A DNA stretch of 47,875 nucleotides from an uncultured archaeon (GCA_964645535.1 CAZYCQ010000021.1:1-47875); one strand, 5' to 3'. Counted from the stretch's first letter, positions 1,971 through 17,871 are shown. Numbers and translations are program-made. The notes: generated from the sequence alone by a model not told the origin.

Positions 1971-2106
1971 TCGGGACTCCGGGATTTGAACCCGGGGCCT
2001 GCCGGTTCCTGTTAAGCGCTGGCTATCTATCTTTTCATTGGGTTTTCCCTCGAGATGTGGTATAATACCTACAGCCGGCCGCTCTGCCAGTCTGAGCTAA
2101 GTCCCG
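1971..2106 (-). tRNA. trnY: tRNA-Tyr(GTA) with a 62-nt intron at 37/38 (exons 2106-2069 and 2006-1971)
   Basis: Acceptor CGGGACT/AGTCCCG + A73 (C1-G72, archaeal/eukaryotic Tyr identity), D stem GCTC/GAGC, anticodon stem GCCGG/CCGGC with CT-GTA-G, T arm CCGGG-TTCAAAT-CCCGG; BHB splice motif (CUGU/ACAG helix, bulges AG^G and GA^A); CCA not encoded. Confidence 0.97.
2007..2068 (-). ncRNA. tRNA-Tyr intron with K-turn and ACA box; candidate H/ACA-like guide for Psi35
   Basis: Intron GUAUUAUACCACAUCUCGAGGGAAAACCCAAUGAAAAGAUAGAUAGCCAGCGCUUAACAGGA; K-turn CGA-GGG/CCC-AAU-GA; segments complementary to both flanks of U35-A36; ACA 3 nt from the intron 3' end. Confidence 0.55.
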
Positions 2107-17526: not shown

Positions 17527-17871
17527 TCAGTTCAGCTCTTTGATTCTCTCAGCAATGCTTTTGAGAATGCCCTCCGCCTCACCTGCATCAATTATTGCAG
17601 AAGATGCAGTGGGAACGTCAAGTCCTGCTGCCTTTCCGAGAGCTTCTGCAGATGGTACTTCGATGTAGGGTGTGTTTTTCTCCTTTGAAAGGATAGGAAG
17701 GTGGCGAACAATCTCTGGGGGGTTAACGTCCTTGGCAATGAAAACAAGTTTTGCCTTACCCCTCTCGATGTTCTTCGTAACTTCATTTGTTCCTTTCTTG
17801 ATTTTTCCGACTTCTCTTGCTCGTTCAAGCAAAGCGAGTGAATCATTGATTAGATCTTCTGGAAATTCCAT
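17527..17871 (-). CDS. rpl7ae: Ribosomal protein L7Ae (K-turn-binding protein)
   Basis: GKIKKGTNEVTKNIERG...IAKDVNPPEIV.HLP; first gene of the conserved L7Ae-S28e-L24e cluster. Confidence 0.98.
   Translation of the reverse strand: MEFPEDLINDSLALLERAREVGKIKKGTNEVTKNIERGKAKLVFIAKDVNPPEIVRHLPILSKEKNTPYIEVPSAEALGKAAGLDVPTASSAIIDAGEAEGILKSIAERIKELN

Follow-up and report, generated by a model that had tools for sequence, protein, structure and literature searches.

A candidate H/ACA-like pseudouridylation guide within the intron of archaeal tRNA-Tyr

The 62-nucleotide (nt) intron of a tyrosine tRNA gene, tRNA-Tyr(GUA), in a 47,875-nt stretch of DNA from an uncultured archaeon (GCA_964645535.1 CAZYCQ010000021.1:1-47875; hereafter the window) can be folded with its own 5' exon into a structure that resembles an H/ACA-type pseudouridylation guide with its substrate already docked, and that is neither a classic H/ACA nor a box C/D guide, a description that our data support in part. 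The gene lies on the minus strand at 1971-2106 (Rfam RF00005 tRNA model, 51.9 bits), with the 5' exon at 2106-2069, the intron at 2068-2007 and the 3' exon at 2006-1971. Judging from the sequence, we somewhat favour the interpretation that this intron acts as an atypical H/ACA-like guide for the Cbf5-dependent formation of pseudouridine at position 35 (Psi35) of the precursor in which it resides.

In the alternative fold (all features on the minus strand), the 3' guide segment UAGCCAGCGCUU (2014-2025) pairs with the exon strand from G34 back to G22 (2072-2084), which comprises the 3' half of the D stem, G26, the 5' half of the anticodon stem and C32-G34. The duplex between U2025..U2014 of the intron and G34..G22 of the exon, whose core is UAGCC with G30-G34, covers 11 of 12 positions, two of them G-U pairs, with a C29/A2020 mismatch and a bulged G26. 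On the other side of the junction, G37 opens a short hairpin (2059-2069; GGUA at 2069-2066, loop UUA, UACC at 2062-2059) in which UACC would play the part of the 5' guide, and U35 and A36 (2070-2071) are the only junction nucleotides left unpaired, U35, the proposed target, standing at the H/ACA 'UN' place. The upper stem, read from the sequence and assessed by a shuffle test, is a hairpin (2026-2058) with a kink-turn (K-turn). Its stem consists of C2057-G2027 and of AUCU (2056-2053) paired with AGAU (2032-2029), A2028 being bulged, and is followed by CGA (2052-2050), GGG-AAAA-CCC (2049-2040), the 3-nt bulge AAU (2039-2037) and GA (2036-2035), giving the sheared pairs G2051-A2035 and A2050-G2036 and a GGG/CCC C-stem with an AAAA loop. 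Between the K-turn and the junction, the 5' strand measures 9 nt and the 3' strand 11 nt. Of 2000 shuffled versions of the intron (dinucleotide shuffling), 4 contained a K-turn of the same form. All pairings that had been listed in an earlier note on the window, together with the ACA trinucleotide considered below, were found again where that note had placed them.

The relatives examined were tRNA-Tyr genes from the window's family, from its order and from a 301-genome sample of the phylum, the features of the intron playing no part in the selection, which yielded 66 distinct Asgard pre-tRNA-Tyr sequences. Eight Asgard families (f1, f2, f4-f7, f14 and f27) have tRNA-Tyr introns with a K-turn or kink-loop (K-loop), in the form xxGA-[stem or loop]-NNNGA-xx and with covariation in both stems. 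The hairpin starting at G37 recurs with changing sequence (GGUA/UACC, GGU/ACC, GAG/CUC, GUC/GAC, GAU/AUC, GAC/GUC, GCCG/UGGC, GGCA/UGCC, GAAC/GUUC and others). Directly 3' of the K-turn stem, YAGCC(G) pairs with G30-G34 (and C29); YAGCC stands there in 55 K-turn introns, and in most sequences the K-turn stem adjoins both flanking helices without spacers. When the region from G22 to the end of the intron was folded by minimum free energy (MFE), 16 of 64 sequences gave a flawless three-way junction in which U35 and A36 alone were unpaired, compared with 0.05% of 6400 dinucleotide shuffles.

Alignment to a covariance model provided additional support. The model, built from 17 sequences, aligned 63 matches (62 tRNA-Tyr and one stray match elsewhere in L054), and 92% of the cells in this alignment were paired, versus 74.5% in column shuffles and 27-39% with slid partners; compensatory changes were found at 11 of the 16 pairs, and the covariation score of 0.436 (versus 0.165) was reached by none of 500 shuffles, figures that overstate independence, because the sequences share ancestry and their alignment was fitted to the model. 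Variation on both sides was seen at all seven pairs of the K-turn stem and at two of the three pairs of the G37 hairpin, the second of which is AU in 29 sequences, UA in 22, GC in 6 and CG in 2, and pair types switch repeatedly between families. The earlier note had proposed to look for conservation and covariation of the K-turn and of the exon complementarity in Asgard tRNA-Tyr introns, and the outcome was positive: the K-turn stem, the G37 hairpin and the 3' guide to G34 are conserved with covariation. The same data bear on the possibility that the excised intron is a guide in trans for another RNA, for example ribosomal RNA (rRNA), and that its match to its own exon is incidental. Although atypical H/ACA guides do work in trans on rRNA (PMC11077068), this seems very improbable here: the 5' element covaries with the first bases of the intron itself and with G37, the 3' element follows the tRNA's own stem where it is extended (L002, L094, L097 and L108), and the guide arms are short and variable.

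The spacing between the K-turn and the junction proved to be nearly invariant. The distance d3 is defined as the number of nucleotides from the G of the K-turn 3' GA to the nucleotide that pairs with G34. Automatic parsing of 50 sequences gave a d3 of 10 for 19 of them and of 11 for 28, 47 in all; in the remaining three (L001, L002 and L088) the parser had taken the wrong GA, and reading by hand gives 11 for each. On the 5' strand, the end of the G37 hairpin is separated from the 5' GA by 9-10 nt. Despite the constant d3, introns range in length from 42 to 77 nt and carry 0-37 nt beyond the PS1 core, the variation residing in the distal stem/loop of the K-turn, the loop of the G37 hairpin and the tail. 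As d3 is constant while intron and tail lengths vary, the K-turn is fixed relative to the U35 junction and not to the splice sites. The GA stem of H/ACA guides has 10 layers in all crystal structures of H/ACA ribonucleoproteins (RNPs), ranges from 8 to 11 layers in natural guides, and is believed to determine the contact between L7Ae and Nop10 (PMC4652768; PMC7991803); the K-turn spacing of 10-11 nt, as counted along the sequences, matches this stem of about 10 layers. To calibrate the spacing, classic H/ACA hairpins were also sought with a descriptor across the genome; the 107 matches obtained, versus 79 in the control, were no better than the control.

The bases that pair in the alternative fold are also needed for splicing. 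The intron occupies position 37/38 of the anticodon loop, the canonical site, and its ends form an archaeal bulge-helix-bulge (BHB) in which CUGU (C32-U35, 2074-2071) pairs with ACAG (2012-2009) in a helix of 4 base pairs (bp), with 3-nt bulges at both splice sites, A36-G37-G and G-A-A38 (2008-2006), and an outer helix of merely 2 bp; the 3' half of the motif spans 2006-2012 (minus strand), and the ACA within it (2012-2010) doubles as a candidate ACA box. A canonical BHB is cleaved after the second base of the bulge, so that the 5' exon ends in ...CUGUAG, the intron is 2068-2007 and the 3' exon starts with ACCGGC, which together make tRNA-Tyr(GUA); C1-G72 and A73 fit tyrosine identity. Neither the D stem nor the anticodon stem can coexist with the alternative fold, whose G37 hairpin closes the bulge at the 5' splice site; a toggle with the splicing fold is therefore required, and the claim of the earlier note that the two folds are mutually exclusive was thereby borne out. 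Structures drawn by hand and evaluated by nearest-neighbour energies gave -36.7 kcal/mol for the alternative fold versus -37.9 kcal/mol for the cloverleaf with the BHB, while folding with the cloverleaf enforced gave -44.2 kcal/mol and unconstrained folding -46.0 kcal/mol. As the alternative fold and the cloverleaf with the BHB are close in energy, both states are plausible.

Competition between folds might also serve a purpose other than modification, the K-turn being an L7Ae-bound structural or timing module and the fold doing no more than sequestering the anticodon stem, whereby splicing would be delayed or ordered, or the excised or circular intron stabilised, without Cbf5. We regard this explanation as unlikely, though it deserves some weight. 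It is favoured by the similar energies at which the alternative and splicing folds compete, by the many lineages that combine a weak BHB helix (GURG or GCCG as opposed to CUGU) with a strong alternative helix, and by sequence L007, which has a K-turn and no 3' guide. However, it leaves unexplained the fixed distance of 10-11 nt between the K-turn and the partner of G34, given that distances to the splice sites vary, as well as why exactly U35 and A36 are free, and a role of this kind is not known for L7Ae.

An H/ACA-like guide would account for the fixed spacing and the free U35 and A36, and the question arises to which class of guide the intron belongs. Of the features of classic H/ACA guides, the upper-stem K-turn (GA/GA, 3-nt bulge, GGG/CCC), the spacing of about 10 layers and the bipartite pairing (3' guide to G34, 5' guide from G37, U35 and A36 free) are present, whereas no intramolecular lower stem of 7-9 bp closing the pocket was found; in its place stands the exon:intron helix, with 12 positions in the window and just 5-8 in most relatives. 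Counting from U2025, the ACA of the window begins at nt 14, and its last base lies 3 nt before the intron end. This position is forced by the BHB helix in which the ACA lies, as the earlier note had already recognised from its pairing with CUGU. Within the window's order the ACA is found at nt 19/25 (L002), 12 (L003) or 11 (L010), or is absent, and ACA was accordingly discarded as a conserved box of the K-turn clades. The description of the intron as H/ACA-like in the earlier note therefore stands as far as the K-turn, the 10-11 nt distance and the bipartite U35-A36 pocket are concerned, and falls short with regard to both lower stem and ACA.

A different arrangement was observed in the K-turn-less Asgard families f10, f12, f21 and f24, in which a plain hairpin of 7-9 bp is followed by a 12-nt complement of exon 22-34 (one bulge) and then by NN-ACA. 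The ACA lies at nt 15 in 8 of 10 of these sequences (seven parsed, and L110 placed by hand, the parser having mis-set PS1 and given 21). In L086 and L110-113 it is outside the BHB helix, which uses a later GCAG or GUAG, so that the ACA there is kept for another reason. These observations are suggestive, not proof, of an ACA ruler in about three K-turn-less lineages. The K-turn-less set consists of L086, L098 and L107-L113, the introns of f21 having a variable extension of 20-30 nt after ACAU.

The best match for the K-turn-bearing module is with atypical (lower-stem-less, ACA-less) H/ACA guides, which it fits better than classic ones: a single K-turn hairpin with guide flanks, no lower stem and no required ACA. 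Pyrobaculum has H/ACA-like RNAs without a lower stem and often without ACA (PMC4652768), and four atypical RNAs of S. islandicus, one of which has a 3' guide alone, are functional in vivo and in vitro (PMC11077068); moreover, a typical target with an unpaired 'UN' does not need ACA, and pairing on the 3' side weighs more than pairing on the 5' side (PMC7075261). As here, Pyrobaculum sR203-210 and S. islandicus sR109, sR136, sR148 and sR563 have a single K-turn and guide flanks and lack a lower stem and a conserved ACA, and sR148, with its 3' guide only, resembles the forms of the intron module found in DPANN archaea and in family f4. The atypical guides of S. islandicus also modify a U in their own 5' flank, provided that the 3' guide is paired with the bases upstream of this U (PMC11077068), and the topology of this self-modification by Cbf5 is the same as that of exon..G34 and U35 in the intron module. 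The difference is that these atypical guides are free-standing small RNAs directed at rRNA, whereas here the module lies inside a tRNA intron, its 5' flank is the tRNA exon, which provides one strand, and it would have to be dismantled for splicing.

A further precedent is provided by the box C/D guides encoded within the introns of pre-tRNA-Trp (in Haloferax and others) and of tRNA-Met (in N. equitans), which likewise bind L7Ae, are complementary to their own exons and exclude the splicing fold, but which have two K-turns and direct 2'-O-methylation by fibrillarin, with targets 34 and 39 (PMC3491384). That the tRNA-Tyr intron could be a methylation guide of this kind is scarcely credible: although the K-loop strands resemble D' and C' boxes (UGUGA ... 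AAUGAU), there is no D box after the 3' segment, and we rejected the box C/D reading on the grounds that there is one K-turn only, that a terminal C/D pair is lacking and that the strand upstream of the D'-like box is inside a 7-bp stem, so that no guide is placed for the N+5 rule.

Several observations weigh against a function of the intron as an H/ACA-like guide, beginning with the fact that ACA is not conserved in the K-turn clades. In the window, the K-turn stem is irregular: beside 4 Watson-Crick pairs and C2057-G2027 it contains two bulged A's, and it is closed by an A/A mismatch, the window copy being a somewhat degenerate representative. The unconstrained MFE fold pairs U35 with A2026, though the intron-exon helix is present, and the exon:intron duplex (-14.0 kcal/mol) was matched by 185 of 2000 shuffles (9%), which is not significant for this single sequence. 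As the duplex is not significant there and the K-turn alone is beyond chance, the case rests on the 66 Asgard pre-tRNA-Tyr sequences. In these, the advantage of an intron's own exon over other exons as a match is only modest (mean rank 0.35 versus 0.5), the own exon being best or tied-best in 15 of 66 cases; because the paired exon bases are invariant, the 3' guide core yields little covariation, which limits this comparison. L007 (genome G001, of the same genus as the window) retains both the G37 hairpin and the stem of the K-turn but lacks a complement of G30-G34, its K-turn stem running directly into the BHB strand GUAG, and family f4 and DPANN archaea have forms without the G37 hairpin, with a bulge of 5-6 nt instead.

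The genes for the proteins concerned give a mixed picture. A gene for L7Ae, the expected K-turn binder, lies in the window itself (17527-17871, minus strand; Pfam PF01248, 94.7 bits), about 15 kb from the tRNA-Tyr gene, and genes for Cbf5 and Nop10 are present in the genome. To the contrary evidence must be added that Gar1 was not found in this 89% complete genome, while the atypical guides of Sulfolobus are dependent on Gar1 (PMC11077068), and that Pus7 (TruD), whose absence had been suggested in the earlier note, is encoded intact (394 amino acids, 217 bits, catalytic Asp motif GIKDKKA). Pus7 also occurs in four of five DPANN genomes with the module, Cbf5 in all five. With Pus7 intact, a protein-only route to Psi35 exists, and the module is therefore not strictly required.

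The alternative fold might accordingly present U35, in its UGUAG context, to stand-alone Pus7, with L7Ae as a mere scaffold, as an archaeal counterpart of intron-dependent Psi35 formation in eukaryotes. In support of this explanation, Pus7 is intact here and in the DPANN carriers of the module, the target falls within the Pus7 consensus, and Psi35 is intron-dependent in yeast and plants (PMC2651775), where modification likewise takes place on the intron-containing precursor. Nevertheless we consider it improbable: the Pus7 of P. abyssi is equally active on intron-less tRNA-Tyr (PMC2651775), and Pus7 is not known to make use of a K-turn at H/ACA spacing. The eukaryotic introns differ from those described here in that they are short and without a K-turn and are served by a protein-only enzyme.

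If the tRNA-Tyr intron is indeed an H/ACA-like guide, the binding of proteins, the formation of Psi35, the choice between cis and trans action and the order of events are parts of the model that we infer, as follows. Before splicing, the precursor would adopt the alternative fold, the 3' segment of the intron pairing with the 5' strand of the anticodon stem up to G34 and, in the window, also reaching into the D stem. The segment immediately 5' of the K-turn stem would pair with G37 and the first bases of the intron to give the short hairpin. The K-turn hairpin would close the junction, leaving U35 and A36 alone unpaired. L7Ae would then bind the K-turn, and Nop10 and Cbf5 would dock about 10 stacked layers below L7Ae and isomerise U35, either in cis or, by way of the excised intron, in trans. 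Finally, the RNA would refold to the cloverleaf with the BHB and be spliced.

Modification of the same nucleotide by H/ACA RNPs is known from stand-alone guides. Sso1 and sR115 make Psi35 of pre-tRNA-Tyr, as established in vitro and by deletion (PMC2651775; PMC11077068), and Sso1, Sto1, Sac1, Mse2 and Ape7 (Sulfolobales and Aeropyrum) and sR115 (S. islandicus) share their target U35 with the intron module (PMC2651775; PMC11077068). The two partners are also the same, namely the anticodon-arm strand 5' of U35 and G37 with the intron bases 3' of A36; the stand-alone guides have an upper-stem K-turn as well, their distance from target to ACA is 14 nt as in the window, and some of them form unusually long 3'-guide duplexes, a further likeness to the window module. 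They differ in being separate, trans-acting genes with a classic lower stem and a conserved ACA, and in being found where Pus7 is defective, whereas here the guide is inside the intron of its target and Pus7 looks intact. Our searches of the literature turned up no description of a tRNA-Tyr intron with a K-turn or an H/ACA guide, and a 2026 preprint on Asgard tRNA introns makes no mention of K-turn, L7Ae or Tyr. If correct, our interpretation would make this the first case in which a pseudouridylation guide resides in the intron of the RNA that it targets, and a naturally occurring H/ACA-type RNP that acts in cis. Guides that lack a lower stem, which were validated only recently, would then no longer be limited to Crenarchaeota, and a programmed conformational switch between a modification fold and a splicing fold would be predicted. 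The interpretation would also explain in functional terms why the tRNA-Tyr intron has been retained, as has long been noted, and why Psi35 depends on the intron, linking Asgard archaea with other archaea and with eukaryotes.

The module is not confined to Asgard archaea. We scanned one genome per prokaryotic species for the pattern exon + TGA + 8-9 nt + YAGCC, which gave at least 120 stretches. Among the matches listed, the module is found in Promethearchaeota, Heimdall-/Hodarchaeota, Thermofilaceae/Thermoproteales, Bathyarchaeota and Nitrososphaerota and, among DPANN archaea, in Woese-, Pace- and Nanoarchaeota, so that, by this pattern, it occurs in TACK and DPANN archaea too; as the pattern fixes the spacing, the scan shows presence in those groups and not an unbiased frequency. 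We put forward only tentatively the broader idea that self-guided pseudouridylation, by a cis-acting, ACA-less H/ACA-type element, may be an ancient, archaea-wide role of the tRNA-Tyr intron, which free-standing guides in Sulfolobales and the Pus7 route in eukaryotes would later have taken over; such a history would account for both the persistence of the intron and the intron-dependence of Psi35 up to eukaryotes. Five of the matches listed are in records labelled as bacteria (L137, L156, L191, L192 and L187). The tRNA-Tyr of L156 (Nanopelagicaceae) is archaeal and shares an identical intron with a Promethearchaeia record (L147), and this identity suggests that the contig was mis-binned. The matches L137 (Sedimentibacter) and L192 (Alphaproteobacteria) likewise resemble archaeal tRNA-Tyr, and L187 and L191 look like chance matches.

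Among the relatives, the tRNA-Tyr intron is identical in L006, of the same genus as the window, and in L178 (Candidatus Heimdallarchaeota), which places the source of the window among Asgard archaea of the Heimdall group. A second intervening sequence, in the variable-loop/T-arm region, accompanies the 37/38 intron in L092, L096, L101, L102 and L116. In the genome from which the window derives, the copy at 2106-1971 was the only tRNA-Tyr gene found when the assembly was scanned. ARAGORN at default settings reported no tRNA anywhere in the window and, with introns allowed, labelled the gene tRNA-His(GUG) with a 62-nt intron, an assignment that we ruled out by the BHB geometry and by C1-G72/A73; it also labels the tRNA-Tyr genes of two relatives (L009 and L012) Asn(GUU). 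Given such misses and miscalls, automatic annotation of these genomes may lack tRNA-Tyr. Immediately 3' of the gene is an oligo-T run, UUUUCAUUUUUCCCACUUUUUUU (minus strand; flank 1948-1970), and 5' of it (region 2129-2153) are the A/T boxes TTAAAT (2153-2148) and AAAATA (2136-2131), an arrangement that fits an independent transcription unit. At 62 nt, the tRNA-Tyr intron is far longer than the other tRNA introns that ARAGORN found in the genome (14-36 nt). The elongator tRNA-Met (C11:7714-7823) has an intron of 36 nt, and the 14-nt intron of tRNA-Arg(UCU) (G000:C42:9278-9364, minus strand), ACAUGAAGGAUGAA, contains two GA dinucleotides with K-loop-like spacing.
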